This document shows positions 6,653-64,000 of a DNA stretch of 64,000 bases, piece after piece (position 1 is the first letter of the stretch; every line of letters starts with the position of its first letter). The translations under genes were made by a program, and so were the position numbers. The stretch spans positions 4,278,001 through 4,342,000 of the forward strand of contig CP089276.1 of the NCBI GenBank assembly GCA_023920165.1. Direction: 5' to 3'. The notes beneath the pieces are model-generated. The model did not search any database. It saw nothing but the letters and a program-made list of their open reading frames with translations, and was not told the DNA's origin. Source of the DNA: Curvularia clavata. Lineage: Eukaryota.

Positions 6653-6659
6653 TAAATAA

Positions 6660-28481: not shown

Positions 28482-28489
28482 TATATATT

Positions 28490-33817: not shown

Positions 33818-33819
33818 TA

Positions 33820-36496: not shown

Positions 36497-36845
36497 TGTA
36501 AAAGTGTGGGGTAGCTACTTATTCTACTAGTAGTAGACTCAGAGGTAGCTTGATTAAAGACTCAAGTAAGTAGTATATGCTAGGGGAGAGAGTTGATGGA
36601 CACGATTGACTTTGTATAAACTGCTCTGGTTTCTATCTACTAGCTATTCTACTACTATATATATTGGCTGGAGTAGATTCTAGAAGAATCTATCTAGTAG
36701 TAGCTTGCGTAATCTTTGGCGTCATAGACAGATGTCTATAGATCGATTATAGTCTTGACAGATCGACTATAGACTAAGTTGATTCTGGGTATAGGAGTAC
36801 GCACCCAGATACTGTAGATTAGCTGACTAGCTTAGATCTACAACA
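36497..36845 (-). repeat. Copia LTR 1 (terminal 3' LTR of the array)
   Basis: Minus strand TG...TTTTACA. Left end fixed by the junction with Gypsy DNA (GTTAT|TGTA). Right end is 36845 (TGTTG) or 36842 (TGTAG), not resolvable here. Confidence 0.93.
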
Positions 36846-36854
36846 CGCCCCCTT
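36846..36854 (-). promoter_or_regulatory. Polypurine tract (AAGGGGGCG), repeated in every unit
   Basis: Lies between the gag-pol stop codon (36858-36860) and the LTR TG. Confidence 0.85.
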
Positions 36855-36857
36855 AAG

Positions 36858-39800
36858 CTAGGAAGCTGTAATTTGGGATATATCTACTAGATTTGCTCCA
36901 AGTAGAAAGTCTCGAGTCTTGTCGGCGCTTGTAGCCTTAGTGAGACTGTCGGCTAGTAGACAGCTAGTGTTTTGATATACTAGCTGGATCTGTTTGGTCT
37001 CTACCTTCTCACGGATAAAGTAGTATTGGATATCGATGTGTTTTGTCCTAGCGTGATAGGTAGGATTTTTGGTGAGTTGGATTGCACTTTGGCTGTCTGA
37101 GTAGACAGTAGTAGCTGTCTTGTCTATGTCTGGCAGTATTGGATATAGAGCTTTAATCTCTTTGATAAACTGGGTGAGATATAAGCTCTGTTTAACTGCT
37201 TCTCGGTAGGCCATGAATTCAGCTTCTGCGCTTGATAGTGCTACTGTCGGCTGTAGTTTTGACAGCCAAGAAATCGCGCAGTTGCTCTTGTTTGACTGGA
37301 GTAAAAATATGTATCCAGTGGTAGATCTTCTACTGTCAAAGTCACCCCCCCAATCTGCATCCGTAGATCCAATCAGTTTAATCAGATCTAAGTTATTTGG
37401 TGCAGATTGACTGCTTTTGATGCTGTTTTGGTTATCAGTACTGAGCTGATAGAGTAGTCCTAGCTGTCTTGACTGAGCTAGATATCCCCATAGGTAGTCT
37501 AGACTGCTGAAATGCTCGGTGCTCGGATTGGCCATGAATCTGGATAGAAGATTGACTGCGTAGGTAATATCCGGCCGAGTAAAAATGGATAGATAGATGA
37601 GAGAGCCAATTTGCTGCTGGTACATATTGGTGGCGTTTGGAGTAGCCGTTTGGCTGTTTCTGTTGAGCTTGATATTCTGTTGCAGTGGAGTCTGTCTTGG
37701 CTTAATATCTTGCTTATTGAATCTAGCAAGTAGCCTTTGTAGATAGTTTTCTTGGGTAATATAGATCGCTCGTCTAGATCTAATTACTTGGACTCCAAGA
37801 AACTCTGAGACGTCGCCTAGATCTTTGATCTCAAGCTTTGAGATAGCTGTTAGGTCTTTGAATAGCTTTTGAATACTTTGCTCTTGTTCTCCAAAAATAA
37901 GCAAGTCGTCTACGTGAGTAGCTATAACAAGCTTCTGCTCGACATTGATATAAGTGGCAGTGTCAATAGACAGAGATTTGAAGCCTAGTTGTCCGAGTAG
38001 GCTTGCTAGTAGTTTCTGCCACTGTCTACTGGCTTGTTTTAGCCCGTATAGAGCCTTGTTAAGCAAGCAGACGTGCTGTGGATAGTGCTGATCTTGAAAT
38101 CCTTCTGGCTGCTCGACGTATATAGTCGTGTCGATTAAAGCATTTGGGAAAGCTTGCTTGACATCCCAGCTTTTTATATGCCAGTTTTGAGCTGCTGAAA
38201 TGGCTAGTAGTAGCCGGATTAGATCAGGCCGAGTAGTATTGGCAAATGTCTCGTAGTAGTTGACTCCAAGCTCTTGTTGAAAGCCTTTCGCTACCCAACG
38301 TGCTTTGAATATAAAATCGCCATTTTGCTGGTATTTTTTGTTAAGTACCCAGCGGCCTTTGAGAACTGGATATTCGGACGGTCTTGGTACAAGCTTCCAA
38401 GTGTCGTTCTTTTGCAGCTGGTCTAGCTCGTTTTGCATAGCTAATAGATAGTGTTGACTGTCTTGGTGCTGTAGCACTTGAGCGTAGCTTTTTGGATCAG
38501 TGATATCCTTTGAAGTAAATAAGACTTCTTCTAGGATAATGTCCTCTGCTGCTATTTCTGGTGGAGCTTTTTGATTAGTGGATAGAGCTAATTCTGCTGG
38601 CTTGGCTTTCTTTTTGATCAAAACAATCGGATTTCTTCCAACTACTCTCATGGAGTTGGCTGGTGGATTTGACTGGCTAGTATTTGGCTCAGTATTTGGC
38701 TCAGTATTTGGCTCAGTATTTGGCTCAGTATTTGGCTCAGCATTTGGCTCAGTATTTGGCTCTTCGTCAAGCTGCAGTTCTTCATCAGGAGCTTGATCAT
38801 TGAACACTCCTTCTAGTATTTGGACGTCTCTTGTAGTAGTAACCTTGTTAGTTCTAATATCGATTAGACGATATAGATTTTTACTAATATATCCAACAAG
38901 GTAGTACTGCTGGACACGAGAATCTAGTTTGCTAAGAAACTCTTTTGGCTCTTTCTTGTATGCTAGAGATCCCCAGATTCTAACATTGCTGACGTCTGGT
39001 TTATATCCATATTTGGCTTCAAATGGCGTCTTAAAGCCAATAGAGCTGTGCGGTGTTCTATTGTATAGATACACTGCCGCTAGTAGAGCTTCTGCCCATA
39101 GCTTATTGGGCATTTTGGCTTCAAATAGCAGAGCTCTAATCTTGTCAAATAGCGTTCGGTTGATCCGCTCGGCTCCGCCTTTGCCTTCTGGATTGAATGG
39201 AGGAGTAAATCGGAGTTTAAATCCCTTTCTAGTAGCTAGCTTTTGCAGCTCTAGCGTGTCCAACTCATTGTCTGATTGGATAGCTTTGATCTGCTTTGAG
39301 TCTTGGACTTCTGCTTTCTTAATAAAAGCTTTGACTGGCTTGACTAGCTCTGATCTAGACGTGAGTAAGTCCACTTCTAGATATTTGGTGTAGTAGTCTA
39401 GAAAGGTAATATAATACCGATAGCCCTTATTCGTCTTTGGCTTAATTGGCCCCCCTAGGTCGCAGTAGATCAAATCACCAAACTGGTGGACTGGTGTAGA
39501 TATTGGATCTCTGCTTATTTTGCTAGCAAATTTGCTTCTCAAGCAAATCTCGCAGTTGCTAAATCCACTGCTGGTTTTGGTATTTGATTTGACGCCTTTG
39601 GTATTCTCACTTAGCTTATTTAAGCTAGTTTTACCAATATGGCCAAAACGTCGGTGTAGAAGAGACGTTTGATCGTCTGGCTTAGACTGATCTGTTTGAT
39701 TCGGTTGGACGGATTTGGCTGTCAGCTCTGTATTGTATGTCTCTGTATAGACTTGGCTAGTTTGGATATTGCTAACTGCAGTAAAAGTAGCAATATTTCT

Positions 39801-41048
39801 AGCGTATTGCCCCTTCGCTAGTATTTTGCTAGATAGCCTAATTAGGCTGCTAGTCTTTGAAAACTCGAATTCAGCTCCTTTTTGAACTGCTTGGTAGAGA
39901 CTGAGTAGATTGACTTTGAAGTCCGGCACTAGTAAGACTTCTTTGAGTACTACTGTCTCGCCCGTACTCGTAAATTTAATTGGCACTTCGCCTTTGGCTG
40001 TTGCTTGTAGCAACGCAGTAGAGTTGCCCCATTTAATATACGTATTACTAACGCTGGTAAGGCTTCTAAAAAGCTGTCGGTCAGAGCAAATATGGGAGCT
40101 GGCGGCGCTGTCTAATATCCACTCAATCGACTTGGAAGACTCAGTGGATAGAGCAGCTTTGATATCGGCGATATTTGGATCGACTGAGACTACTGTAGAT
40201 AGAGCTGTCTCAGGCTTATAATATGTCCGACTGGGGCGTTTGCTGGGGTCTTTCTGCCAGCATTGGTCGACTAAATGTCCATTTCTCTTGCAGTGAGAGC
40301 AGTATTTTGGACTTTTGGTGGATTTTTGAGTAGCCAAAGTCATTTCGACGTCTTTTGACTGTGGAGCTTGGTTGGAGCTGCTAATTGGGCTCCTTTGGTA
40401 TGGTCTGTAGCTCTTTTGGTAAGAGCTATTTGAGTTACTGCCGCTGCTGCTTCTAATCGATTTCTGGCGTCTTGATTCGTCCATAATTTGGTTGTATAAG
40501 TTCTCAAGATCAATCTCTTTGTTAGATCTAAAATCTTGAGTAATAGCTGTAACCAAATAGTCAAAGTCTGAGCTTAGATTATTGAGAATCAAAGCAGCAA
40601 TGAATCGGTGCGGTAGTGCCAGATTTCGGCTCTCTAGACTAAGGACTAGTCTGTTGATTTTTTGGAGATATATTTCGACGTTGTTTTGGCACTGCTGCAC
40701 GGTCGTATTGATAAGATCTTTGCAAATTAAGAAGTCAGAGCTAAAGCCTTTTGGGCTATATAGCTTCTTTAGGTGATTCCATAGACTATATGGAGTTTTC
40801 ATGTCTTTTGACTGTAGTAGAGGCCCATCGTCTAGACTGAGTCGTAGAGTAGACAGAGCTTTGATTTCTGAGCTTTTTAGCTTCTGATATCTCTCAGAGC
40901 CTTTACTTTGTTCAAGCTCTTGTGGGTCGACTGTTATAATCTCGTAGCAGTCTTGCTGTATAAGCACTGCTTCGATCCGTAGTGCCCACATGTCATAGTT
41001 AGAGCTGCCTTTGAGCTTTGGCACTCTAAATATGCTACTGTCAGCCAT
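36858..41048 (-). CDS. Copia gag-pol polyprotein, copy 1 (1,396 aa, intact)
   Basis: Zinc knuckle CSHCKRNGHLVDQC, protease ILDSAAS, integrase HRRFGH..CEIC with DLGG/SDNE/AERINR, RT WDVKQAF and HVDDLL, RNase H DADWGG/EAEF/SDSQSA/ADSLTK. PR-IN-RT-RH order. Confidence 0.98.
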   Translation of the reverse strand: MADSSIFRVPKLKGSSNYDMWALRIEAVLIQQDCYEIITVDPQELEQSKGSERYQKLKSSEIKALSTLRLSLDDGPLLQSKDMKTPYSLWNHLKKLYSPKGFSSDFLICKDLINTTVQQCQNNVEIYLQKINRLVLSLESRNLALPHRFIAALILNNLSSDFDYLVTAITQDFRSNKEIDLENLYNQIMDESRRQKSIRSSSGSNSNSSYQKSYRPYQRSPISSSNQAPQSKDVEMTLATQKSTKSPKYCSHCKRNGHLVDQCWQKDPSKRPSRTYYKPETALSTVVSVDPNIADIKAALSTESSKSIEWILDSAASSHICSDRQLFRSLTSVSNTYIKWGNSTALLQATAKGEVPIKFTSTGETVVLKEVLLVPDFKVNLLSLYQAVQKGAEFEFSKTSSLIRLSSKILAKGQYARNIATFTAVSNIQTSQVYTETYNTELTAKSVQPNQTDQSKPDDQTSLLHRRFGHIGKTSLNKLSENTKGVKSNTKTSSGFSNCEICLRSKFASKISRDPISTPVHQFGDLIYCDLGGPIKPKTNKGYRYYITFLDYYTKYLEVDLLTSRSELVKPVKAFIKKAEVQDSKQIKAIQSDNELDTLELQKLATRKGFKLRFTPPFNPEGKGGAERINRTLFDKIRALLFEAKMPNKLWAEALLAAVYLYNRTPHSSIGFKTPFEAKYGYKPDVSNVRIWGSLAYKKEPKEFLSKLDSRVQQYYLVGYISKNLYRLIDIRTNKVTTTRDVQILEGVFNDQAPDEELQLDEEPNTEPNAEPNTEPNTEPNTEPNTEPNTSQSNPPANSMRVVGRNPIVLIKKKAKPAELALSTNQKAPPEIAAEDIILEEVLFTSKDITDPKSYAQVLQHQDSQHYLLAMQNELDQLQKNDTWKLVPRPSEYPVLKGRWVLNKKYQQNGDFIFKARWVAKGFQQELGVNYYETFANTTRPDLIRLLLAISAAQNWHIKSWDVKQAFPNALIDTTIYVEQPEGFQDQHYPQHVCLLNKALYGLKQASRQWQKLLASLLGQLGFKSLSIDTATYINVEQKLVIATHVDDLLIFGEQEQSIQKLFKDLTAISKLEIKDLGDVSEFLGVQVIRSRRAIYITQENYLQRLLARFNKQDIKPRQTPLQQNIKLNRNSQTATPNATNMYQQQIGSLIYLSIFTRPDITYAVNLLSRFMANPSTEHFSSLDYLWGYLAQSRQLGLLYQLSTDNQNSIKSSQSAPNNLDLIKLIGSTDADWGGDFDSRRSTTGYIFLLQSNKSNCAISWLSKLQPTVALSSAEAEFMAYREAVKQSLYLTQFIKEIKALYPILPDIDKTATTVYSDSQSAIQLTKNPTYHARTKHIDIQYYFIREKVETKQIQLVYQNTSCLLADSLTKATSADKTRDFLLGANLVDISQITAS
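38679..38762 (-). repeat. 7 x 12-bp coding minisatellite (EPNT/EPNA) in the integrase-RT linker; present in every unit
   Basis: (AGTATTTGGCTC)n on + strand with one AGCATTTGGCTC variant. Confidence 0.95.
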
Positions 41049-41417
41049 TTTGTGCTGCTAGTCTGTCTAGAAATATAGACTAGATAGCTGTTTGTAGTCT
41101 AGCGCAGTAAATAAGCAGTTACTGTTCTTACTATGAAGAACTCTGGCTGCTAGTCGATCGAGTTGATCTGTCTGCAACTAGCTACAAGAAGCTTCGGCTA
41201 ACCCCTAACCAGAGTATTTAGCTGCGTTTGCGGCTCAGAGACTCCTAAACTGATAGGGTTTTTGCTTCAGTAGAGTTTCTCAGCTTTTTAGCCGTGGTTT
41301 ACTCTTAACCCTTAGTAACCCTAGCTTTTACTAAGAGACTAGCTATATTTATACTAGCTCTTACTTTAGTCTTATGCTAAGACTTGCTAGAATCTTCGAT
41401 CGATAGACACGTAATCC

Positions 41418-41429
41418 GGGCTCATAACC
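41418..41429 (-). promoter_or_regulatory. Primer binding site complementary to the tRNAiMet anticodon stem-loop (half-tRNA priming); repeated at each junction
   Basis: Minus strand reads LTR...TACA|GGTTATGAGCCC. The + strand GGGCTCATAACC matches the initiator Met tRNA anticodon arm. Confidence 0.88.
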
Positions 41430-41778
41430 TGTAAAAGTGTGGGGTAGCTACTTATTCTACTAGTAGTAGACTCAGAGGTAGCTTGATTAAAGACTCAAGT
41501 AAGTAGTATATGCTAGGGGAGAGAGTTGATGGACACGATTGACTTTGTATAAACTGCTCTGGTTTCTATCTACTAGCTATTCTACTACTATATATATTGG
41601 CTGGAGTAGATTCTAGAAGAATCTATCTAGTAGTAGCTTGCGTAATCTTTGGCGTCATAGACAGATGTCTATAGATCGATTATAGTCTTGACAGATCGAC
41701 TATAGACTAAGTTGATTCTGGGTATAGGAGTACGCACCCAGATACTGTAGATTAGCTGACTAGCTTAGATCTACAACA
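41430..41778 (-). repeat. Copia LTR 2 (shared)
   Basis: Same sequence as LTR 1, with PBS on one side and PPT on the other. Confidence 0.93.
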
Positions 41779-41790
41779 CGCCCCCTTAAG

Positions 41791-44700
41791 CTAGGAAGCT
41801 GTAATTTGGGATATATCTACTAGATTTGCTCCAAGTAGAAAGTCTCGAGTCTTGTCGGCGCTTGTAGCCTTAGTGAGACTGTCGGCTAGTAGACAGCTAG
41901 TGTTTTGATATACTAGCTGGATCTGTTTGGTCTCTACCTTCTCACGGATAAAGTAGTATTGGATATCGATGTGTTTTGTCCTAGCGTGATAGGTAGGATT
42001 TTTGGTGAGTTGGATTGCACTTTGGCTGTCTGAGTAGACAGTAGTAGCTGTCTTGTCTATGTCTGGCAGTATTGGATATAGAGCTTTAATCTCTTTGATA
42101 AACTGGGTGAGATATAAGCTCTGTTTAACTGCTTCTCGGTAGGCCATGAATTCAGCTTCTGCGCTTGATAGTGCTACTGTCGGCTGTAGTTTTGACAGCC
42201 AAGAAATCGCGCAGTTGCTCTTGTTTGACTGGAGTAAAAATATGTATCCAGTGGTAGATCTTCTACTGTCAAAGTCACCCCCCCAATCTGCATCCGTAGA
42301 TCCAATCAGTTTAATCAGATCTAAGTTATTTGGTGCAGATTGACTGCTTTTGATGCTGTTTTGGTTATCAGTACTGAGCTGATAGAGTAGTCCTAGCTGT
42401 CTTGACTGAGCTAGATATCCCCATAGGTAGTCTAGACTGCTGAAATGCTCGGTGCTCGGATTGGCCATGAATCTGGATAGAAGATTGACTGCGTAGGTAA
42501 TATCCGGCCGAGTAAAAATGGATAGATAGATGAGAGAGCCAATTTGCTGCTGGTACATATTGGTGGCGTTTGGAGTAGCCGTTTGGCTGTTTCTGTTGAG
42601 CTTGATATTCTGTTGCAGTGGAGTCTGTCTTGGCTTAATATCTTGCTTATTGAATCTAGCAAGTAGCCTTTGTAGATAGTTTTCTTGGGTAATATAGATC
42701 GCTCGTCTAGATCTAATTACTTGGACTCCAAGAAACTCTGAGACGTCGCCTAGATCTTTGATCTCAAGCTTTGAGATAGCTGTTAGGTCTTTGAATAGCT
42801 TTTGAATACTTTGCTCTTGTTCTCCAAAAATAAGCAAGTCGTCTACGTGAGTAGCTATAACAAGCTTCTGCTCGACATTGATATAAGTGGCAGTGTCAAT
42901 AGACAGAGATTTGAAGCCTAGTTGTCCGAGTAGGCTTGCTAGTAGTTTCTGCCACTGTCTACTGGCTTGTTTTAGCCCGTATAGAGCCTTGTTAAGCAAG
43001 CAGACGTGCTGTGGATAGTGCTGATCTTGAAATCCTTCTGGCTGCTCGACGTATATAGTCGTGTCGATTAAAGCATTTGGGAAAGCTTGCTTGACATCCC
43101 AGCTTTTTATATGCCAGTTTTGAGCTGCTGAAATGGCTAGTAGTAGCCGGATTAGATCAGGCCGAGTAGTATTGGCAAATGTCTCGTAGTAGTTGACTCC
43201 AAGCTCTTGTTGAAAGCCTTTCGCTACCCAACGTGCTTTGAATATAAAATCGCCATTTTGCTGGTATTTTTTGTTAAGTACCCAGCGGCCTTTGAGAACT
43301 GGATATTCGGACGGTCTTGGTACAAGCTTCCAAGTGTCGTTCTTTTGCAGCTGGTCTAGCTCGTTTTGCATAGCTAATAGATAGTGTTGACTGTCTTGGT
43401 GCTGTAGCACTTGAGCGTAGCTTTTTGGATCAGTGATATCCTTTGAAGTAAATAAGACTTCTTCTAGGATAATGTCCTCTGCTGCTATTTCTGGTGGAGC
43501 TTTTTGATTAGTGGATAGAGCTAATTCTGCTGGCTTGGCTTTCTTTTTGATCAAAACAATCGGATTTCTTCCAACTACTCTCATGGAGTTGGCTGGTGGA
43601 TTTGACTGGCTAGTATTTGGCTCAGTATTTGGCTCAGTATTTGGCTCAGTATTTGGCTCAGTATTTGGCTCAGCATTTGGCTCAGTATTTGGCTCTTCGT
43701 CAAGCTGCAGTTCTTCATCAGGAGCTTGATCATTGAACACTCCTTCTAGTATTTGGACGTCTCTTGTAGTAGTAACCTTGTTAGTTCTAATATCGATTAG
43801 ACGATATAGATTTTTACTAATATATCCAACAAGGTAGTACTGCTGGACACGAGAATCTAGTTTGCTAAGAAACTCTTTTGGCTCTTTCTTGTATGCTAGA
43901 GATCCCCAGATTCTAACATTGCTGACGTCTGGTTTATATCCATATTTGGCTTCAAATGGCGTCTTAAAGCCAATAGAGCTGTGCGGTGTTCTATTGTATA
44001 GATACACTGCCGCTAGTAGAGCTTCTGCCCATAGCTTATTGGGCATTTTGGCTTCAAATAGCAGAGCTCTAATCTTGTCAAATAGCGTTCGGTTGATCCG
44101 CTCGGCTCCGCCTTTGCCTTCTGGATTGAATGGAGGAGTAAATCGGAGTTTAAATCCCTTTCTAGTAGCTAGCTTTTGCAGCTCTAGCGTGTCCAACTCA
44201 TTGTCTGATTGGATAGCTTTGATCTGCTTTGAGTCTTGGACTTCTGCTTTCTTAATAAAAGCTTTGACTGGCTTGACTAGCTCTGATCTAGACGTGAGTA
44301 AGTCCACTTCTAGATATTTGGTGTAGTAGTCTAGAAAGGTAATATAATACCGATAGCCCTTATTCGTCTTTGGCTTAATTGGCCCCCCTAGGTCGCAGTA
44401 GATCAAATCACCAAACTGGTGGACTGGTGTAGATATTGGATCTCTGCTTATTTTGCTAGCAAATTTGCTTCTCAAGCAAATCTCGCAGTTGCTAAATCCA
44501 CTGCTGGTTTTGGTATTTGATTTGACGCCTTTGGTATTCTCACTTAGCTTATTTAAGCTAGTTTTACCAATATGGCCAAAACGTCGGTGTAGAAGAGACG
44601 TTTGATCGTCTGGCTTAGACTGATCTGTTTGATTCGGTTGGACGGATTTGGCTGTCAGCTCTGTATTGTATGTCTCTGTATAGACTTGGCTAGTTTGGAT

Positions 44701-46362: not shown

Positions 46363-46711
46363 TGTAAAAGTGTGGGGTAGCTACTTATTCTACTAGTAGT
46401 AGACTCAGAGGTAGCTTGATTAAAGACTCAAGTAAGTAGTATATGCTAGGGGAGAGAGTTGATGGACACGATTGACTTTGTATAAACTGCTCTGGTTTCT
46501 ATCTACTAGCTATTCTACTACTATATATATTGGCTGGAGTAGATTCTAGAAGAATCTATCTAGTAGTAGCTTGCGTAATCTTTGGCGTCATAGACAGATG
46601 TCTATAGATCGATTATAGTCTTGACAGATCGACTATAGACTAAGTTGATTCTGGGTATAGGAGTACGCACCCAGATACTGTAGATTAGCTGACTAGCTTA
46701 GATCTACAACA
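46363..46711 (-). repeat. Copia LTR 3 (shared)
   Basis: Same sequence as LTR 1. Confidence 0.93.
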
Positions 46712-46723
46712 CGCCCCCTTAAG

Positions 46724-51644: not shown

Positions 51645-51656
51645 CGCCCCCTTAAG

Positions 51657-54600: not shown

Positions 54601-55847
54601 GCGTATTGCCCCTTCGCTAGTATTTTGCTAGATAGCCTAATTAGGCTGCTAGTCTTTGAAAACTCGAATTCAGCTCCTTTTTGAACTGCTTGGTAGAGAC
54701 TGAGTAGATTGACTTTGAAGTCCGGCACTAGTAAGACTTCTTTGAGTACTACTGTCTCGCCCGTACTCGTAAATTTAATTGGCACTTCGCCTTTGGCTGT
54801 TGCTTGTAGCAACGCAGTAGAGTTGCCCCATTTAATATACGTATTACTAACGCTGGTAAGGCTTCTAAAAAGCTGTCGGTCAGAGCAAATATGGGAGCTG
54901 GCGGCGCTGTCTAATATCCACTCAATCGACTTGGAAGACTCAGTGGATAGAGCAGCTTTGATATCGGCGATATTTGGATCGACTGAGACTACTGTAGATA
55001 GAGCTGTCTCAGGCTTATAATATGTCCGACTGGGGCGTTTGCTGGGGTCTTTCTGCCAGCATTGGTCGACTAAATGTCCATTTCTCTTGCAGTGAGAGCA
55101 GTATTTTGGACTTTTGGTGGATTTTTGAGTAGCCAAAGTCATTTCGACGTCTTTTGACTGTGGAGCTTGGTTGGAGCTGCTAATTGGGCTCCTTTGGTAT
55201 GGTCTGTAGCTCTTTTGGTAAGAGCTATTTGAGTTACTGCCGCTGCTGCTTCTAATCGATTTCTGGCGTCTTGATTCGTCCATAATTTGGTTGTATAAGT
55301 TCTCAAGATCAATCTCTTTGTTAGATCTAAAATCTTGAGTAATAGCTGTAACCAAATAGTCAAAGTCTGAGCTTAGATTATTGAGAATCAAAGCAGCAAT
55401 GAATCGGTGCGGTAGTGCCAGATTTCGGCTCTCTAGACTAAGGACTAGTCTGTTGATTTTTTGGAGATATATTTCGACGTTGTTTTGGCACTGCTGCACG
55501 GTCGTATTGATAAGATCTTTGCAAATTAAGAAGTCAGAGCTAAAGCCTTTTGGGCTATATAGCTTCTTTAGGTGATTCCATAGACTATATGGAGTTTTCA
55601 TGTCTTTTGACTGTAGTAGAGGCCCATCGTCTAGACTGAGTCGTAGAGTAGACAGAGCTTTGATTTCTGAGCTTTTTAGCTTCTGATATCTCTCAGAGCC
55701 TTTACTTTGTTCAAGCTCTTGTGGGTCGACTGTTATAATCTCGTAGCAGTCTTGCTGTATAAGCACTGCTTCGATCCGTAGTGCCCACATGTCATAGTTA
55801 GAGCTGCCTTTGAGCTTTGGCACTCTAAATATGCTACTGTCAGCCAT
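51657..55847 (-). CDS. Copia gag-pol polyprotein, copy 4 (intact)
   Basis: Translation identical to copy 1. Confidence 0.98.
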   Translation of the reverse strand: MADSSIFRVPKLKGSSNYDMWALRIEAVLIQQDCYEIITVDPQELEQSKGSERYQKLKSSEIKALSTLRLSLDDGPLLQSKDMKTPYSLWNHLKKLYSPKGFSSDFLICKDLINTTVQQCQNNVEIYLQKINRLVLSLESRNLALPHRFIAALILNNLSSDFDYLVTAITQDFRSNKEIDLENLYNQIMDESRRQKSIRSSSGSNSNSSYQKSYRPYQRSPISSSNQAPQSKDVEMTLATQKSTKSPKYCSHCKRNGHLVDQCWQKDPSKRPSRTYYKPETALSTVVSVDPNIADIKAALSTESSKSIEWILDSAASSHICSDRQLFRSLTSVSNTYIKWGNSTALLQATAKGEVPIKFTSTGETVVLKEVLLVPDFKVNLLSLYQAVQKGAEFEFSKTSSLIRLSSKILAKGQYARNIATFTAVSNIQTSQVYTETYNTELTAKSVQPNQTDQSKPDDQTSLLHRRFGHIGKTSLNKLSENTKGVKSNTKTSSGFSNCEICLRSKFASKISRDPISTPVHQFGDLIYCDLGGPIKPKTNKGYRYYITFLDYYTKYLEVDLLTSRSELVKPVKAFIKKAEVQDSKQIKAIQSDNELDTLELQKLATRKGFKLRFTPPFNPEGKGGAERINRTLFDKIRALLFEAKMPNKLWAEALLAAVYLYNRTPHSSIGFKTPFEAKYGYKPDVSNVRIWGSLAYKKEPKEFLSKLDSRVQQYYLVGYISKNLYRLIDIRTNKVTTTRDVQILEGVFNDQAPDEELQLDEEPNTEPNAEPNTEPNTEPNTEPNTEPNTSQSNPPANSMRVVGRNPIVLIKKKAKPAELALSTNQKAPPEIAAEDIILEEVLFTSKDITDPKSYAQVLQHQDSQHYLLAMQNELDQLQKNDTWKLVPRPSEYPVLKGRWVLNKKYQQNGDFIFKARWVAKGFQQELGVNYYETFANTTRPDLIRLLLAISAAQNWHIKSWDVKQAFPNALIDTTIYVEQPEGFQDQHYPQHVCLLNKALYGLKQASRQWQKLLASLLGQLGFKSLSIDTATYINVEQKLVIATHVDDLLIFGEQEQSIQKLFKDLTAISKLEIKDLGDVSEFLGVQVIRSRRAIYITQENYLQRLLARFNKQDIKPRQTPLQQNIKLNRNSQTATPNATNMYQQQIGSLIYLSIFTRPDITYAVNLLSRFMANPSTEHFSSLDYLWGYLAQSRQLGLLYQLSTDNQNSIKSSQSAPNNLDLIKLIGSTDADWGGDFDSRRSTTGYIFLLQSNKSNCAISWLSKLQPTVALSSAEAEFMAYREAVKQSLYLTQFIKEIKALYPILPDIDKTATTVYSDSQSAIQLTKNPTYHARTKHIDIQYYFIREKVETKQIQLVYQNTSCLLADSLTKATSADKTRDFLLGANLVDISQITAS

Positions 55848-56228: not shown

Positions 56229-56577
56229 TGTAAAAGTGTGGGGTAGCTACTTATTCTACTAGTAGTAGACTCAGAGGTAGCTTGATTAAAGACTCAAGTA
56301 AGTAGTATATGCTAGGGGAGAGAGTTGATGGACACGATTGACTTTGTATAAACTGCTCTGGTTTCTATCTACTAGCTATTCTACTACTATATATATTGGC
56401 TGGAGTAGATTCTAGAAGAATCTATCTAGTAGTAGCTTGCGTAATCTTTGGCGTCATAGACAGATGTCTATAGATCGATTATAGTCTTGACAGATCGACT
56501 ATAGACTAAGTTGATTCTGGGTATAGGAGTACGCACCCAGATACTGTAGATTAGCTGACTAGCTTAGATCTACAACA
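56229..56577 (-). repeat. Copia LTR 5 (shared)
   Basis: Same sequence as LTR 1. Confidence 0.93.
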
Positions 56578-56589
56578 CGCCCCCTTAAG

Positions 56590-59500
56590 CTAGGAAGCTG
56601 TAATTTGGGATATATCTACTAGATTTGCTCCAAGTAGAAAGTCTCGAGTCTTGTCGGCGCTTGTAGCCTTAGTGAGACTGTCGGCTAGTAGACAGCTAGT
56701 GTTTTGATATACTAGCTGGATCTGTTTGGTCTCTACCTTCTCACGGATAAAGTAGTATTGGATATCGATGTGTTTTGTCCTAGCGTGATAGGTAGGATTT
56801 TTGGTGAGTTGGATTGCACTTTGGCTGTCTGAGTAGACAGTAGTAGCTGTCTTGTCTATGTCTGGCAGTATTGGATATAGAGCTTTAATCTCTTTGATAA
56901 ACTGGGTGAGATATAAGCTCTGTTTAACTGCTTCTCGGTAGGCCATGAATTCAGCTTCTGCGCTTGATAGTGCTACTGTCGGCTGTAGTTTTGACAGCCA
57001 AGAAATCGCGCAGTTGCTCTTGTTTGACTGGAGTAAAAATATGTATCCAGTGGTAGATCTTCTACTGTCAAAGTCACCCCCCCAATCTGCATCCGTAGAT
57101 CCAATCAGTTTAATCAGATCTAAGTTATTTGGTGCAGATTGACTGCTTTTGATGCTGTTTTGGTTATCAGTACTGAGCTGATAGAGTAGTCCTAGCTGTC
57201 TTGACTGAGCTAGATATCCCCATAGGTAGTCTAGACTGCTGAAATGCTCGGTGCTCGGATTGGCCATGAATCTGGATAGAAGATTGACTGCGTAGGTAAT
57301 ATCCGGCCGAGTAAAAATGGATAGATAGATGAGAGAGCCAATTTGCTGCTGGTACATATTGGTGGCGTTTGGAGTAGCCGTTTGGCTGTTTCTGTTGAGC
57401 TTGATATTCTGTTGCAGTGGAGTCTGTCTTGGCTTAATATCTTGCTTATTGAATCTAGCAAGTAGCCTTTGTAGATAGTTTTCTTGGGTAATATAGATCG
57501 CTCGTCTAGATCTAATTACTTGGACTCCAAGAAACTCTGAGACGTCGCCTAGATCTTTGATCTCAAGCTTTGAGATAGCTGTTAGGTCTTTGAATAGCTT
57601 TTGAATACTTTGCTCTTGTTCTCCAAAAATAAGCAAGTCGTCTACGTGAGTAGCTATAACAAGCTTCTGCTCGACATTGATATAAGTGGCAGTGTCAATA
57701 GACAGAGATTTGAAGCCTAGTTGTCCGAGTAGGCTTGCTAGTAGTTTCTGCCACTGTCTACTGGCTTGTTTTAGCCCGTATAGAGCCTTGTTAAGCAAGC
57801 AGACGTGCTGTGGATAGTGCTGATCTTGAAATCCTTCTGGCTGCTCGACGTATATAGTCGTGTCGATTAAAGCATTTGGGAAAGCTTGCTTGACATCCCA
57901 GCTTTTTATATGCCAGTTTTGAGCTGCTGAAATGGCTAGTAGTAGCCGGATTAGATCAGGCCGAGTAGTATTGGCAAATGTCTCGTAGTAGTTGACTCCA
58001 AGCTCTTGTTGAAAGCCTTTCGCTACCCAACGTGCTTTGAATATAAAATCGCCATTTTGCTGGTATTTTTTGTTAAGTACCCAGCGGCCTTTGAGAACTG
58101 GATATTCGGACGGTCTTGGTACAAGCTTCCAAGTGTCGTTCTTTTGCAGCTGGTCTAGCTCGTTTTGCATAGCTAATAGATAGTGTTGACTGTCTTGGTG
58201 CTGTAGCACTTGAGCGTAGCTTTTTGGATCAGTGATATCCTTTGAAGTAAATAAGACTTCTTCTAGGATAATGTCCTCTGCTGCTATTTCTGGTGGAGCT
58301 TTTTGATTAGTGGATAGAGCTAATTCTGCTGGCTTGGCTTTCTTTTTGATCAAAACAATCGGATTTCTTCCAACTACTCTCATGGAGTTGGCTGGTGGAT
58401 TTGACTGGCTAGTATTTGGCTCAGTATTTGGCTCAGTATTTGGCTCAGTATTTGGCTCAGTATTTGGCTCAGCATTTGGCTCAGTATTTGGCTCTTCGTC
58501 AAGCTGCAGTTCTTCATCAGGAGCTTGATCATTGAACACTCCTTCTAGTATTTGGACGTCTCTTGTAGTAGTAACCTTGTTAGTTCTAATATCGATTAGA
58601 CGATATAGATTTTTACTAATATATCCAACAAGGTAGTACTGCTGGACACGAGAATCTAGTTTGCTAAGAAACTCTTTTGGCTCTTTCTTGTATGCTAGAG
58701 ATCCCCAGATTCTAACATTGCTGACGTCTGGTTTATATCCATATTTGGCTTCAAATGGCGTCTTAAAGCCAATAGAGCTGTGCGGTGTTCTATTGTATAG
58801 ATACACTGCCGCTAGTAGAGCTTCTGCCCATAGCTTATTGGGCATTTTGGCTTCAAATAGCAGAGCTCTAATCTTGTCAAATAGCGTTCGGTTGATCCGC
58901 TCGGCTCCGCCTTTGCCTTCTGGATTGAATGGAGGAGTAAATCGGAGTTTAAATCCCTTTCTAGTAGCTAGCTTTTGCAGCTCTAGCGTGTCCAACTCAT
59001 TGTCTGATTGGATAGCTTTGATCTGCTTTGAGTCTTGGACTTCTGCTTTCTTAATAAAAGCTTTGACTGGCTTGACTAGCTCTGATCTAGACGTGAGTAA
59101 GTCCACTTCTAGATATTTGGTGTAGTAGTCTAGAAAGGTAATATAATACCGATAGCCCTTATTCGTCTTTGGCTTAATTGGCCCCCCTAGGTCGCAGTAG
59201 ATCAAATCACCAAACTGGTGGACTGGTGTAGATATTGGATCTCTGCTTATTTTGCTAGCAAATTTGCTTCTCAAGCAAATCTCGCAGTTGCTAAATCCAC
59301 TGCTGGTTTTGGTATTTGATTTGACGCCTTTGGTATTCTCACTTAGCTTATTTAAGCTAGTTTTACCAATATGGCCAAAACGTCGGTGTAGAAGAGACGT
59401 TTGATCGTCTGGCTTAGACTGATCTGTTTGATTCGGTTGGACGGATTTGGCTGTCAGCTCTGTATTGTATGTCTCTGTATAGACTTGGCTAGTTTGGATA

Positions 59501-60780
59501 TTGCTAACTGCAGTAAAAGTAGCAATATTTCTAGCGTATTGCCCCTTCGCTAGTATTTTGCTAGATAGCCTAATTAGGCTGCTAGTCTTTGAAAACTCGA
59601 ATTCAGCTCCTTTTTGAACTGCTTGGTAGAGACTGAGTAGATTGACTTTGAAGTCCGGCACTAGTAAGACTTCTTTGAGTACTACTGTCTCGCCCGTACT
59701 CGTAAATTTAATTGGCACTTCGCCTTTGGCTGTTGCTTGTAGCAACGCAGTAGAGTTGCCCCATTTAATATACGTATTACTAACGCTGGTAAGGCTTCTA
59801 AAAAGCTGTCGGTCAGAGCAAATATGGGAGCTGGCGGCGCTGTCTAATATCCACTCAATCGACTTGGAAGACTCAGTGGATAGAGCAGCTTTGATATCGG
59901 CGATATTTGGATCGACTGAGACTACTGTAGATAGAGCTGTCTCAGGCTTATAATATGTCCGACTGGGGCGTTTGCTGGGGTCTTTCTGCCAGCATTGGTC
60001 GACTAAATGTCCATTTCTCTTGCAGTGAGAGCAGTATTTTGGACTTTTGGTGGATTTTTGAGTAGCCAAAGTCATTTCGACGTCTTTTGACTGTGGAGCT
60101 TGGTTGGAGCTGCTAATTGGGCTCCTTTGGTATGGTCTGTAGCTCTTTTGGTAAGAGCTATTTGAGTTACTGCCGCTGCTGCTTCTAATCGATTTCTGGC
60201 GTCTTGATTCGTCCATAATTTGGTTGTATAAGTTCTCAAGATCAATCTCTTTGTTAGATCTAAAATCTTGAGTAATAGCTGTAACCAAATAGTCAAAGTC
60301 TGAGCTTAGATTATTGAGAATCAAAGCAGCAATGAATCGGTGCGGTAGTGCCAGATTTCGGCTCTCTAGACTAAGGACTAGTCTGTTGATTTTTTGGAGA
60401 TATATTTCGACGTTGTTTTGGCACTGCTGCACGGTCGTATTGATAAGATCTTTGCAAATTAAGAAGTCAGAGCTAAAGCCTTTTGGGCTATATAGCTTCT
60501 TTAGGTGATTCCATAGACTATATGGAGTTTTCATGTCTTTTGACTGTAGTAGAGGCCCATCGTCTAGACTGAGTCGTAGAGTAGACAGAGCTTTGATTTC
60601 TGAGCTTTTTAGCTTCTGATATCTCTCAGAGCCTTTACTTTGTTCAAGCTCTTGTGGGTCGACTGTTATAATCTCGTAGCAGTCTTGCTGTATAAGCACT
60701 GCTTCGATCCGTAGTGCCCACATGTCATAGTTAGAGCTGCCTTTGAGCTTTGGCACTCTAAATATGCTACTGTCAGCCAT
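56590..60780 (-). CDS. Copia gag-pol polyprotein, copy 5 (intact)
   Basis: Translation identical to copy 1. Confidence 0.98.
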   Translation of the reverse strand: MADSSIFRVPKLKGSSNYDMWALRIEAVLIQQDCYEIITVDPQELEQSKGSERYQKLKSSEIKALSTLRLSLDDGPLLQSKDMKTPYSLWNHLKKLYSPKGFSSDFLICKDLINTTVQQCQNNVEIYLQKINRLVLSLESRNLALPHRFIAALILNNLSSDFDYLVTAITQDFRSNKEIDLENLYNQIMDESRRQKSIRSSSGSNSNSSYQKSYRPYQRSPISSSNQAPQSKDVEMTLATQKSTKSPKYCSHCKRNGHLVDQCWQKDPSKRPSRTYYKPETALSTVVSVDPNIADIKAALSTESSKSIEWILDSAASSHICSDRQLFRSLTSVSNTYIKWGNSTALLQATAKGEVPIKFTSTGETVVLKEVLLVPDFKVNLLSLYQAVQKGAEFEFSKTSSLIRLSSKILAKGQYARNIATFTAVSNIQTSQVYTETYNTELTAKSVQPNQTDQSKPDDQTSLLHRRFGHIGKTSLNKLSENTKGVKSNTKTSSGFSNCEICLRSKFASKISRDPISTPVHQFGDLIYCDLGGPIKPKTNKGYRYYITFLDYYTKYLEVDLLTSRSELVKPVKAFIKKAEVQDSKQIKAIQSDNELDTLELQKLATRKGFKLRFTPPFNPEGKGGAERINRTLFDKIRALLFEAKMPNKLWAEALLAAVYLYNRTPHSSIGFKTPFEAKYGYKPDVSNVRIWGSLAYKKEPKEFLSKLDSRVQQYYLVGYISKNLYRLIDIRTNKVTTTRDVQILEGVFNDQAPDEELQLDEEPNTEPNAEPNTEPNTEPNTEPNTEPNTSQSNPPANSMRVVGRNPIVLIKKKAKPAELALSTNQKAPPEIAAEDIILEEVLFTSKDITDPKSYAQVLQHQDSQHYLLAMQNELDQLQKNDTWKLVPRPSEYPVLKGRWVLNKKYQQNGDFIFKARWVAKGFQQELGVNYYETFANTTRPDLIRLLLAISAAQNWHIKSWDVKQAFPNALIDTTIYVEQPEGFQDQHYPQHVCLLNKALYGLKQASRQWQKLLASLLGQLGFKSLSIDTATYINVEQKLVIATHVDDLLIFGEQEQSIQKLFKDLTAISKLEIKDLGDVSEFLGVQVIRSRRAIYITQENYLQRLLARFNKQDIKPRQTPLQQNIKLNRNSQTATPNATNMYQQQIGSLIYLSIFTRPDITYAVNLLSRFMANPSTEHFSSLDYLWGYLAQSRQLGLLYQLSTDNQNSIKSSQSAPNNLDLIKLIGSTDADWGGDFDSRRSTTGYIFLLQSNKSNCAISWLSKLQPTVALSSAEAEFMAYREAVKQSLYLTQFIKEIKALYPILPDIDKTATTVYSDSQSAIQLTKNPTYHARTKHIDIQYYFIREKVETKQIQLVYQNTSCLLADSLTKATSADKTRDFLLGANLVDISQITAS

Positions 60781-61161: not shown

Positions 61162-61510
61162 TGTAAAAGTGTGGGGTAGCTACTTATTCTACTAGTAGTA
61201 GACTCAGAGGTAGCTTGATTAAAGACTCAAGTAAGTAGTATATGCTAGGGGAGAGAGTTGATGGACACGATTGACTTTGTATAAACTGCTCTGGTTTCTA
61301 TCTACTAGCTATTCTACTACTATATATATTGGCTGGAGTAGATTCTAGAAGAATCTATCTAGTAGTAGCTTGCGTAATCTTTGGCGTCATAGACAGATGT
61401 CTATAGATCGATTATAGTCTTGACAGATCGACTATAGACTAAGTTGATTCTGGGTATAGGAGTACGCACCCAGATACTGTAGATTAGCTGACTAGCTTAG
61501 ATCTACAACA
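61162..61510 (-). repeat. Copia LTR 6 (shared)
   Basis: Same sequence as LTR 1. Confidence 0.93.
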
Positions 61511-61522
61511 CGCCCCCTTAAG

Positions 61523-64000
61523 CTAGGAAGCTGTAATTTGGGATATATCTACTAGATTTGCTCCAAGTAGAAAGTCTCGAGTCTTGTCGGCGCTTGTAGC
61601 CTTAGTGAGACTGTCGGCTAGTAGACAGCTAGTGTTTTGATATACTAGCTGGATCTGTTTGGTCTCTACCTTCTCACGGATAAAGTAGTATTGGATATCG
61701 ATGTGTTTTGTCCTAGCGTGATAGGTAGGATTTTTGGTGAGTTGGATTGCACTTTGGCTGTCTGAGTAGACAGTAGTAGCTGTCTTGTCTATGTCTGGCA
61801 GTATTGGATATAGAGCTTTAATCTCTTTGATAAACTGGGTGAGATATAAGCTCTGTTTAACTGCTTCTCGGTAGGCCATGAATTCAGCTTCTGCGCTTGA
61901 TAGTGCTACTGTCGGCTGTAGTTTTGACAGCCAAGAAATCGCGCAGTTGCTCTTGTTTGACTGGAGTAAAAATATGTATCCAGTGGTAGATCTTCTACTG
62001 TCAAAGTCACCCCCCCAATCTGCATCCGTAGATCCAATCAGTTTAATCAGATCTAAGTTATTTGGTGCAGATTGACTGCTTTTGATGCTGTTTTGGTTAT
62101 CAGTACTGAGCTGATAGAGTAGTCCTAGCTGTCTTGACTGAGCTAGATATCCCCATAGGTAGTCTAGACTGCTGAAATGCTCGGTGCTCGGATTGGCCAT
62201 GAATCTGGATAGAAGATTGACTGCGTAGGTAATATCCGGCCGAGTAAAAATGGATAGATAGATGAGAGAGCCAATTTGCTGCTGGTACATATTGGTGGCG
62301 TTTGGAGTAGCCGTTTGGCTGTTTCTGTTGAGCTTGATATTCTGTTGCAGTGGAGTCTGTCTTGGCTTAATATCTTGCTTATTGAATCTAGCAAGTAGCC
62401 TTTGTAGATAGTTTTCTTGGGTAATATAGATCGCTCGTCTAGATCTAATTACTTGGACTCCAAGAAACTCTGAGACGTCGCCTAGATCTTTGATCTCAAG
62501 CTTTGAGATAGCTGTTAGGTCTTTGAATAGCTTTTGAATACTTTGCTCTTGTTCTCCAAAAATAAGCAAGTCGTCTACGTGAGTAGCTATAACAAGCTTC
62601 TGCTCGACATTGATATAAGTGGCAGTGTCAATAGACAGAGATTTGAAGCCTAGTTGTCCGAGTAGGCTTGCTAGTAGTTTCTGCCACTGTCTACTGGCTT
62701 GTTTTAGCCCGTATAGAGCCTTGTTAAGCAAGCAGACGTGCTGTGGATAGTGCTGATCTTGAAATCCTTCTGGCTGCTCGACGTATATAGTCGTGTCGAT
62801 TAAAGCATTTGGGAAAGCTTGCTTGACATCCCAGCTTTTTATATGCCAGTTTTGAGCTGCTGAAATGGCTAGTAGTAGCCGGATTAGATCAGGCCGAGTA
62901 GTATTGGCAAATGTCTCGTAGTAGTTGACTCCAAGCTCTTGTTGAAAGCCTTTCGCTACCCAACGTGCTTTGAATATAAAATCGCCATTTTGCTGGTATT
63001 TTTTGTTAAGTACCCAGCGGCCTTTGAGAACTGGATATTCGGACGGTCTTGGTACAAGCTTCCAAGTGTCGTTCTTTTGCAGCTGGTCTAGCTCGTTTTG
63101 CATAGCTAATAGATAGTGTTGACTGTCTTGGTGCTGTAGCACTTGAGCGTAGCTTTTTGGATCAGTGATATCCTTTGAAGTAAATAAGACTTCTTCTAGG
63201 ATAATGTCCTCTGCTGCTATTTCTGGTGGAGCTTTTTGATTAGTGGATAGAGCTAATTCTGCTGGCTTGGCTTTCTTTTTGATCAAAACAATCGGATTTC
63301 TTCCAACTACTCTCATGGAGTTGGCTGGTGGATTTGACTGGCTAGTATTTGGCTCAGTATTTGGCTCAGTATTTGGCTCAGTATTTGGCTCAGTATTTGG
63401 CTCAGCATTTGGCTCAGTATTTGGCTCTTCGTCAAGCTGCAGTTCTTCATCAGGAGCTTGATCATTGAACACTCCTTCTAGTATTTGGACGTCTCTTGTA
63501 GTAGTAACCTTGTTAGTTCTAATATCGATTAGACGATATAGATTTTTACTAATATATCCAACAAGGTAGTACTGCTGGACACGAGAATCTAGTTTGCTAA
63601 GAAACTCTTTTGGCTCTTTCTTGTATGCTAGAGATCCCCAGATTCTAACATTGCTGACGTCTGGTTTATATCCATATTTGGCTTCAAATGGCGTCTTAAA
63701 GCCAATAGAGCTGTGCGGTGTTCTATTGTATAGATACACTGCCGCTAGTAGAGCTTCTGCCCATAGCTTATTGGGCATTTTGGCTTCAAATAGCAGAGCT
63801 CTAATCTTGTCAAATAGCGTTCGGTTGATCCGCTCGGCTCCGCCTTTGCCTTCTGGATTGAATGGAGGAGTAAATCGGAGTTTAAATCCCTTTCTAGTAG
63901 CTAGCTTTTGCAGCTCTAGCGTGTCCAACTCATTGTCTGATTGGATAGCTTTGATCTGCTTTGAGTCTTGGACTTCTGCTTTCTTAATAAAAGCTTTGAC
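61523..64000 (-). CDS. Copia gag-pol polyprotein, copy 6 (5' part beyond window)
   Basis: The 801-aa ORF-track fragment matches the C-terminal part of copy 1, and the frame continues to the window edge. Confidence 0.96.
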   Translation of the reverse strand, partial: VKAFIKKAEVQDSKQIKAIQSDNELDTLELQKLATRKGFKLRFTPPFNPEGKGGAERINRTLFDKIRALLFEAKMPNKLWAEALLAAVYLYNRTPHSSIGFKTPFEAKYGYKPDVSNVRIWGSLAYKKEPKEFLSKLDSRVQQYYLVGYISKNLYRLIDIRTNKVTTTRDVQILEGVFNDQAPDEELQLDEEPNTEPNAEPNTEPNTEPNTEPNTEPNTSQSNPPANSMRVVGRNPIVLIKKKAKPAELALSTNQKAPPEIAAEDIILEEVLFTSKDITDPKSYAQVLQHQDSQHYLLAMQNELDQLQKNDTWKLVPRPSEYPVLKGRWVLNKKYQQNGDFIFKARWVAKGFQQELGVNYYETFANTTRPDLIRLLLAISAAQNWHIKSWDVKQAFPNALIDTTIYVEQPEGFQDQHYPQHVCLLNKALYGLKQASRQWQKLLASLLGQLGFKSLSIDTATYINVEQKLVIATHVDDLLIFGEQEQSIQKLFKDLTAISKLEIKDLGDVSEFLGVQVIRSRRAIYITQENYLQRLLARFNKQDIKPRQTPLQQNIKLNRNSQTATPNATNMYQQQIGSLIYLSIFTRPDITYAVNLLSRFMANPSTEHFSSLDYLWGYLAQSRQLGLLYQLSTDNQNSIKSSQSAPNNLDLIKLIGSTDADWGGDFDSRRSTTGYIFLLQSNKSNCAISWLSKLQPTVALSSAEAEFMAYREAVKQSLYLTQFIKEIKALYPILPDIDKTATTVYSDSQSAIQLTKNPTYHARTKHIDIQYYFIREKVETKQIQLVYQNTSCLLADSLTKATSADKTRDFLLGANLVDISQITAS

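Follow-up and report, generated by a model that had tools for sequence, protein, structure and literature searches.

The window, that is the whole 64-kb stretch of Curvularia clavata DNA analyzed here, contains an array of Copia retrotransposon units that runs from position 36,497 to the window end with an exact period of 4,933 bp (0 mismatches over 22,571 compared bases), inserted into an older Gypsy element. The in-window part of the array spans more than 27 kb and holds five complete units and a sixth truncated by the window end (5.58 units, six LTRs); an earlier note on this DNA had counted at least six intact elements, of which the window shows five. The features are (window coordinates, strand):

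3431..4251, +: uninterrupted paralogue of the host Gypsy; shows the empty site and predicts the far flank
35876..36496, -: chromoviral Gypsy host element degraded by RIP: its 3' part, with the integrase C-terminus and the chromodomain, broken by the array
36492..36496, +: GTTAT, expected target-site duplication (TSD), on this side only in the window
36497..36845, -: terminal (3') LTR, 349 bp, TG...CA, host DNA on one side and polypurine tract (PPT) on the other
36846..36854, -: PPT of unit 1, recurring every 4,933 bp
36858..41048, -: unit 1 gag-PR-IN-RT-RNaseH ORF, 1,396 aa (P0001)
41049..41429, -: unit 1 5' leader, 381 bp, starting with the 12-nt PBS at 41418-41429
41430..41778, -: shared LTR, junction 1
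41791..45981, -: unit 2 ORF, identical
46363..46711, -: shared LTR, junction 2
46724..50914, -: unit 3 ORF, identical
51296..51644, -: shared LTR, junction 3
51657..55847, -: unit 4 ORF, identical
56229..56577, -: shared LTR, junction 4
56590..60780, -: unit 5 ORF, identical
61162..61510, -: shared LTR, junction 5
61511..64000, -: unit 6, 3' part only, ending at the window end

Structure of the array and of its unit

The 4,933-bp period was the dominant 20-mer offset in the 64-kb window (22,327 matches), and the positions identical to those 4,933 bp further on formed a single continuous run of 22,571 bases beginning at 36,497. Self-BLAST of the window gave 100.000% identity and 0 gaps at each multiple of 4,933. 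The units start at 36497, 41430, 46363, 51296, 56229 and 61162. Compared base by base, units 2-5 were each identical to unit 1 across 4,933 bases, as was unit 6 across its 2,839 in-window bases, which bears out both the exact period and the absence of SNPs reported before. At such length, a chance origin of the periodicity is irrelevant. Identical 1,396-aa translations had been claimed as well: the ORF list has five of them on the minus strand, and the sixth ORF runs off the window.

Each of the five junctions consists of one shared 349-bp LTR with no TSD and no spacer, just as had been described. Host DNA ending in GTTAT precedes the first LTR, and the PBS end of the adjacent unit immediately precedes each of the other five; the PPT adjoins all six LTRs on their other side. 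As far as the window shows it, this agrees with the tandem layout in the IDENTAM sense, in which LTRs and internal regions alternate, units share one LTR per junction and the interior lacks TSDs (5/5 junctions). We rejected a double insertion at one target site, which would put a pair of LTRs and an intact target site at every junction (PMC5932611 Fig. 1C), since all five junctions have one LTR and no target site. A search of the 36.5-kb flank for other copies or solo LTRs found no 16-mer of the unit there, and no tRNA genes were found within the 64-kb window.

Judged by its layout, the array unit is an autonomous Ty1/copia (Pseudoviridae) element: the 349-bp LTR is bounded by TG...CA, the PBS follows the 5' LTR and the PPT precedes the 3' LTR. 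The Copia identity proposed earlier is supported by the Pfam domains of the 1,396-aa ORF (Retrotran_gag_2 26-197, Pol_BBD 310-391, gag_pre-integrs 442-506, SH3_retrovirus 680-750 and RVT_2 881-1123) and by their order, gag-protease-integrase-RT-RNase H. The rve domain at 525-620 scored 23.7 bits, under the 32.6 cut-off, and RNase H motifs were recognized at 1230-1339 by pattern, with no Pfam match. By sequence comparison the catalytic motifs are present, and five residues deviate at columns conserved across 48 homologues (four conservative changes, one also seen in the Exserohilum protein). The integrase has its HHCC and three acidic residues, and the D593-E627 gap is 33 residues; the canonical spacing is D,D(35)E. 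The gap is 33 in all 30 of the 49 sequences matched by pattern (19 were unmatched), and on this comparison it belongs to the lineage and is no lesion peculiar to this unit. We rejected the idea that the tandem formed because the integrase is defective, as the protein shows no lesion in sequence comparison.

The 12-nt PBS matches, at 12/12 positions, the 3' end of a Northern probe for the yeast initiator tRNA (yeast, not host tRNA), and we take the matched part of the probe to cover the anticodon arm. By this match the PBS is of the half-tRNAiMet type; copia elements primed by a half-tRNA define the genus Hemivirus (PMC1181622). An RT that groups with Ty5, copia and 1731, and priming demonstrated biochemically, are further marks of that genus, and we do not place the unit in it. 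The exact 1,396-aa protein had no match in a collection of 15 billion sequences. No RNA dataset was among the listed runs carrying the unit sequence, which has no bearing on expression. The earlier note saw potentially active elements in the units, and in each internal LTR a putative promoter of one unit and terminator of the next.

The closest named relatives, by amino acid identity, are proteins of Exserohilum turcicum (KAL6154143.1, 80%), Bipolaris maydis (KAH7556718.1, 67%) and Ascochyta lentis (XPS72906.1, 40%). These Copia relatives from Pleosporales share with the Curvularia unit the single-ORF layout and the integrase core with 33 residues from the second D to E. Their locus tags and accessions, as listed, do not adjoin one another, and this suggests dispersed, not tandem, copies. 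Copia-1_CH and Copia-2_CH (PMC4112212, in excerpt) have LTRs of 443 and 1,116 bp and ORFs of 1,525 aa, against 349 bp and 1,396 aa here, so that they are other families.

Insertion site and RIP

It had been proposed that GTTAT within a Gypsy integrase was the site of a clean insertion, and three observations agree with this. The host element matches Pfam Chromo (E=3e-7, translation with X at stops); its 3' part matches paralogue positions 3631-4251 at 85% in inverted orientation, a match that stops exactly where the array begins; and the paralogue reads across the same GTTAT into unbroken host sequence, with a clean break after GTTAT at the array. In run X2, a loose end at 36,496 carries the host continuation of the paralogue. 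The paralogue thus supplies the empty site, and makes the far flank of the array predictable: GTTAT, followed by the host sequence that lies just below position 3631 in the paralogue.

The insertion lies in an AT-rich, RIP-marked, heterochromatin-like block. Between host and paralogue, 84 of the 93 differences are transitions. The RIP composite index is -0.10 in the Copia ORF and mostly 0.6-1.6 in flank windows, and the observed/expected CpA ratio is 1.02 versus 0.34 in the flank. At four-fold sites of the ORF, C is not depleted before A (0.50 versus 0.32-0.55 in other contexts). By these three measures, no RIP history was found in the Copia ORF. The most informative point, which the earlier note did not raise, is this presence of an unmutated array within a RIP-marked block. 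For closely linked direct repeats, 155-220 bp are enough as a RIP substrate (PMC4858203), RIP strikes tandem duplications more often than dispersed ones (PMC10823647), and in Fusarium linked direct repeats trigger silencing in the sexual stage (PMC12366691, in excerpt). Closely linked direct repeats being strong RIP substrates, a real array would be younger than the latest effective sexual cycle, unless RIP has lapsed.

Copy number and origin of the array

Four of the 24 listed public runs (X1, X2, X4 and X18) were compared as contigs. In run X1, which may be the source sample of the window assembly, the five listed flank contigs (0 differences) had depths of 105-119, with no trend across 18-34% GC, and the three listed element contigs (527, 1,009 and 2,003 bp; 0 differences) had depths of 879-942. 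The weighted element/flank ratio is 8.1 (range 7.4-9.0), where the assembly requires at least 5.6 copies. Enough copies therefore exist for the array, and the read-depth check suggested earlier, which could have failed, came out in its favour, although the ratio counts copies and not their arrangement (eight dispersed copies would give an equal ratio). The array locus would hold most of these approximately eight copies, and is probably an (LTR-internal)n-LTR array of 6-9 units, whose predicted far end is at about window position 66,443, 71,376, 76,309 or 81,242, according to the number of units.

Summed LTR depth in X1 was 2,409 and 2,501 versus about 1,000 expected from a lone array, in sums that include overlapping contigs and related LTRs of at least 90% identity; the excess may come from dispersed copies or solo LTRs. 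Because of this mixture, we discarded the LTR-versus-internal depth as a discriminator between tandem (n+1 LTRs) and dispersed (2n) copies. Among the pieces listed from the compared runs, none spanned two junctions, or a junction and unique flank, and the far flank was absent among the 24 loose ends listed, beside which there are 355 others. Run X18 carries a sibling element, 93-94% identical and with different flanks, with two differing long loose ends at the LTR edge. In four runs sharing the species label of X1, 0.00-0.02 of the words were present, which is no proof of absence. For X2, the lowest element depth listed above zero was 585 versus about 44 in the flank; we rejected this unreliable, roughly 13-fold ratio as a copy-number estimate, the element contigs being fragmented and 6/6 checked indel sites falling in homopolymer runs.

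We consider it likely that the array is a real chromosomal tandem, in which homologous recombination multiplied a single founder insertion in place after the last round of RIP. The anatomy of the insertion site is that of one intact Copia placed into a dead chromoviral Gypsy, presumably by its integrase. A first shared-LTR dimer would then have arisen by homologous recombination: either sister chromatids would have exchanged unequally, 5' LTR with 3' LTR, or the resident copy would have captured the element's own cDNA or a 1-LTR circle. Once a dimer was present, misaligned 4.9-kb units could undergo further unequal exchanges and the array would grow. All steps would have taken place during vegetative growth, once the most recent sexual cycle with RIP was over, and the array would be unmutated for that reason. 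As the earlier note had held, shared-LTR multimers formed by recombination are in print (PMC11042837 and PMC11899658, both in excerpt, and PMC5932611, Fig. 1A).

Two alternatives have to be weighed against this origin. The array could be an artefact: the eight or so copies would then be dispersed, or in part extrachromosomal as 1-LTR circles, and assembly would have extended one chromosomal copy by unrolling a loop or by chaining reads that are circularly permuted. We regard this as unlikely. It would fit the perfect identity, which unrolling yields, the window end falling inside the array, the X1 LTR depth above the lone-array prediction (with its mixed contigs and related LTRs), the dispersed relatives and the X18 loose ends. 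Contigs also drop variants and polishing homogenizes repeats, so the perfect identity may be partly technical. However, about eight real copies by depth exclude, for X1, a single copy unrolled six times, and the even flank depth (105-119) is unlike whole-genome amplification. Long reads, moreover, span the 5.3-kb element, and assemblers then normally place dispersed copies apart; a short-read loop is unrolled only with one entry and one exit, itself a single locus. The one-step insertion of a ready-made concatemer, either a rolling-circle copy of a 1-LTR circle or a reverse-transcribed read-through multimeric transcript, would account at once for the zero differences and the single TSD, and there are published proposals both of concatemers made by rolling circle (PMC5932611 Fig. 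1B) and of 1-LTR circles that give tandem transcripts (PMC11899658, in excerpt). We find it improbable: it requires a 30-45 kb substrate, no intermediate was seen in this analysis, and the end product is the same as that of amplification in place, so that nothing in the sequence demands a concatemer.

Within the preferred reading, amplification in place, DNA-level unequal exchange is quite possibly the main engine, and repeated cDNA capture a more doubtful one; we weigh them so because most of the family seems to be at this locus although the integrase looks intact. Reverse transcription of Ty1 has an error rate near 2.5e-5 per base. Some 0.6 changes would be expected over the added units, so zero differences cannot separate reverse transcription from DNA copying. 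It is also conceivable, at a low probability, that the Copia lineage, once dispersing, now feeds its own array, a growing, length-variable satellite in asexual growth that would be wiped as a block at the next round of RIP. Here, cDNA that integrates poorly would instead recombine with the resident copy. The U5 integrase-attachment end agrees with the U3 end only in its first three bases (5/8), whereas the X18 sibling end would match the window's U3 end in its first five (7/8; one contig). The unreliable X2 ratio would fit a change of array length between cultures.

Known shared-LTR tandems and significance

Shared-LTR tandems are already known from Ty1, Ty5, Tf1/Tf2, rice and Drosophila; unusual in the Curvularia array are its length, perfect identity and RIP-marked host, and it is probably very young. 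Tf elements are Gypsy-type, unlike the Copia array, and Schizosaccharomyces pombe is not known to have RIP. In Saccharomyces, Ke and Voytas in 1997 and 1999 and Sharon et al. in 1994 are said to have described Ty5 and Ty1 tandems from cDNA recombination, reportedly obtained under induced expression or blocked integration, whereas the Curvularia array is a natural locus. Ty5 and Ty1 resemble the Curvularia unit in superfamily (Ty1/copia) and in forming shared-LTR tandems, a likeness by description and not by sequence comparison with Ty5. The Ty5 primer is a half-tRNAiMet (PMC1181622), for which the Curvularia unit has the PBS type, and Ty5 prefers silent chromatin, according to a title cited in the excerpt of PMC11042837, as the Curvularia array sits in a heterochromatin-like block.

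The same excerpt describes single-LTR tandems of Tf1/Tf2 in S. pombe, formed via Rad52-dependent annealing (10 natural tandems among 17 isolates; PMC11042837). Like the Curvularia array, these are intact fungal LTR elements with one shared internal LTR; they are mostly identical, polymorphic among isolates and formed by recombination at a resident copy. Their listed spans are 9.5-18.6 kb, which we read as 2 to about 4 units, against at least 5.6 units and more than 27 kb in Curvularia. The plant IDENTAM tandems (PMC11899658, in excerpt) also alternate LTRs and internal regions, have a single TSD, can be nested in an older element (TLI2) and are polymorphic; the loci detailed there are two dimers with interiors 94-99% identical, unlike the Curvularia array, and 82% of the rice tandem LTR retrotransposons are Gypsy. 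The Cassandra TRIM arrays (PMC7215508, in excerpt) are non-autonomous, unlike the Curvularia unit.

If real, the array would be a satellite caught being born from an autonomous retrotransposon, next to repeats heavily mutated by RIP. It is also a natural and clean system in which to ask whether arrays with shared LTRs lengthen through unequal exchange or through the capture of cDNA. Short-read assemblies, which create PBS-LTR-PPT junctions artificially, collapse arrays of this kind, whose number in fungi is probably underestimated.

Structure of the array and its insertion point

From position 36,497 to the end of the window the sequence repeats perfectly every 4,933 bp, the period claimed in the earlier note, with a single uninterrupted identity run of 22,571 bases and self-BLAST matches of 100.000% at each multiple of the period. 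The units, described there as identical, showed 0 differences when compared with one another (95% upper bound on adjacent-unit divergence, 1.3e-4). Of the "at least six intact" units, five are complete; the sixth is cut by the window end, with 2,839 bases present, and the window holds six LTRs. The array and the neighbouring repeats are:

2003-4399, Gypsy paralogue without the insertion
4519-6654, Tc1/mariner copy 1 (Pfam DDE_3, HTH_Tnp_Tc3_2)
11206-13067 and 29566-31427, inverted pair of degraded repeats (76% identity)
~15036-17108, third Tc1/mariner copy, degraded
26328-28483, Tc1/mariner copy 2 (Pfam DDE_3, HTH_Tnp_Tc3_2)
30235-30465, pogo/Fot1-type DDE_1 fragment, inside the 29566-31427 repeat
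35876-36496, minus strand, 3' part of the interrupted host Gypsy
36,497 to window end, minus strand, Copia array

Each of the five internal junctions consists of the PBS end, a single LTR and the PPT; the single LTR and the lack of a TSD or spacer agree with the earlier note. Repeated insertion into one target site, a route depicted in PMC5932611 (Fig. 1C), is therefore ruled out. On the left the array is flanked by a chromoviral Gypsy that many stops interrupt (Pfam Chromo, E=3e-7), and the paralogue of this Gypsy additionally shows RT and RNase H. The two match at 85% up to base 36,496, where the paralogue runs on uninterrupted and thus gives the empty site: GTTAT, then ATCTAATTATTTT.

The unit comprises a 349-bp LTR (TG...CA ends), a 381-bp leader opening with the PBS, a 1,396-aa ORF and a PPT. 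Pfam identified gag (copia-type), protease, pre-integrase, integrase, SH3 and RVT_2 in copia order; the integrase match is weak, below the cut-off. Pattern matching located zinc-knuckle, HHCC, integrase acidic, RT HVDD and RNase H motifs. In the integrase, 33 residues separate the second D from the E, as they do in all 30 pattern-matched of 49 aligned sequences. Where 85% or more of 48 homologues agree, the protein departs from the alignment column five times (four conservative changes, one shared with the Exserohilum protein), and nothing in its sequence suggests a broken enzyme. The 12-nt PBS equals the 3' end of a probe for yeast initiator tRNA (PMC11230868), which speaks for half-tRNA priming in the sense established with Ty5 and Drosophila copia (PMC1181622).

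The integrase-RT linker contains a 12-bp coding repeat (EPNT run, ~residues 764-793; ~38670-38760 and every 4,933 bp), equal in length in all units and different or shorter in relatives. At the LTR edge (36497-36509), the U5 and U3 ends agree at 5/8 bases; the U5 end of a sibling element in one contig of X18, a public sequencing run, would agree at 7/8 with the array U3 end. Protein searches gave 223 matches among 8,000 scored candidates; among the 120 that were listed, Exserohilum turcicum (80%) and Bipolaris maydis (67%) supplied the closest named relatives, so the genome carrying the array probably belongs to the Pleosporaceae. Locus tags and accessions of named relatives are non-adjacent (at most four accessions shown per sequence), so dispersal looks like the norm for relatives and the array like a local event.

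Copies in public sequencing runs

Of 24 listed runs, two contained at least half of the flank and unit words (X1, 0.92; X2, 0.80); X1, X2, X4 and X18, which are all contig sets, were compared over 29,100-41,429. In X1, possibly the sample from which the window was built, five flank contigs without differences had depths of 105.1-118.6, independent of GC across 18%-34%, and three element contigs without differences had 879.2-942.4. Weighting all 8 listed of 1,410 pieces, used as single contigs since summed depth gives no copy number, yields a ratio of 8.1 (range 7.4-9.0). X1 thus has ~8 near-identical interiors (contigs drop variants) versus 5.6 assembled units. This depth check, proposed in the earlier note, therefore excludes a single copy unrolled by the assembler. 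The assembled array would contain at least 5.6 of the ~8 copies, although tandem and dispersed copies give the same ratio.

No piece spanning two junctions was found among the listed contigs of the four runs, nor the far flank among 24 listed loose ends. Loose ends at 36,578 and 36,773 (X1, X4) mark sequences sharing only part of the LTR, which suggests that these genomes contain related LTR families, or solo LTRs, at other sites.

In X2, seven of eight listed flank pieces had 0 differences (depth 39-53), and the element occurs at high depth in contigs fragmented by homopolymer indels. Five X2 contigs with a loose end at 36,496 carry a continuation nearly identical to the paralogue; their likeliest source is further members of the high-copy host family, with an empty allele as a lesser possibility. 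At position 40017, X2 has G in about a quarter of its depth, reflecting either real variant copies or platform error; G is fixed in X4 and X18, and X1 has only A. X18, labelled as the same organism as X1 but from a different study, left most unique flank bins uncovered and carries a relative, 93-94% identical, that runs into two distinct long loose ends at the LTR edge. X4, which is labelled as another organism, contains relatives at 97.5-98.4% (36870-40917; depth 546-558), closer to the element than that of X18, and at ~90% (depth 87-105). This closeness may reflect a near sister taxon, labelling or horizontal transfer.

RIP and the age of the array

The 36.5-kb flank has a GC of 17-35%, a composite RIP index of 0.6-1.6 (1.5-kb windows) and a CpA o/e of 0.34; the array ORF has 42%, -0.10 and 1.02, and no C loss before A was found at its four-fold sites. 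At 1.01, the LTR index stays within what ORF windows reach (maximum 1.02). The adjoining 5' leader (41049-41429) is RIP-like, its index of 1.80 exceeding all 77 same-size ORF windows (maximum 0.90); on this one index, it may record RIP acting between and beside the LTR pair of an ancestral single copy.

Repeats of 155-220 bp that lie close together set off RIP in Neurospora (PMC4858203), and RIP strikes tandem duplications more often than dispersed ones (PMC10823647). Being unmutated, the array is therefore younger than the last effective RIP round. Tc1/mariner copies 1 and 2 point the same way as a second family, their interiors being identical over 463 and 900 bp.

These two copies lie 21.8 kb apart, and their interiors differ only by one 20-bp indel. 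Their ~330-bp TIRs differ at 81/325 sites, not through RIP, since 49 are transversions; within each copy the TIR pairs are 92% and 96% similar. The pattern resembles the outcome of exchanged TIRs or of a core homogenised by gene conversion.

Origin of the array

Shared-LTR tandems are an established class. In S. pombe, Tf1 cDNA enters resident Tf2 copies by recombination, through annealing that depends on Rad52, and 17 isolates hold 10 natural tandems, the longest listed being 18.6 kb (PMC11042837, which also cites Ty1 and Ty5 tandems); a rice pangenome has 266, with Gypsy making up 82% among 28 curated (PMC11899658). The array belongs to this class and is not a new kind of system.

The structure is present in the sequence and probably in the chromosome. 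Beyond its anatomy, insertion point, ~8 copies in one sample and absence of RIP, which are supported directly, a founder would have been inserted by integrase, a first dimer would have arisen by unequal LTR-LTR exchange or cDNA capture, and unequal exchange would have enlarged the array, all presumably during vegetative growth. We consider a real array amplified in place likely. That DNA-level exchange was its main route is quite conceivable, if a little short of even, and a main role for cDNA capture is rather doubtful.

Summed X1 depth at two LTR positions (2,409 and 2,501) counts against the favoured reading of an array amplified in place, as it exceeds the ~1,000 predicted for a lone array; contigs that overlap, and related families of LTRs, confound the figure. 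An artefact made from dispersed or circular copies is unlikely, and one unrolled copy fails on the X1 depth. That a ready-made concatemer was inserted in one step seems quite improbable. Perfect identity of the units does not separate these routes.

The filamentous-fungus literature covered, mostly as listings and with few subscription journals, yielded no account of an ascomycete bearing RIP marks in which at least five intact units share LTRs, a silence that is weak evidence of absence. Its length, perfect identity, autonomy and RIP-marked setting make the array a good natural test case.
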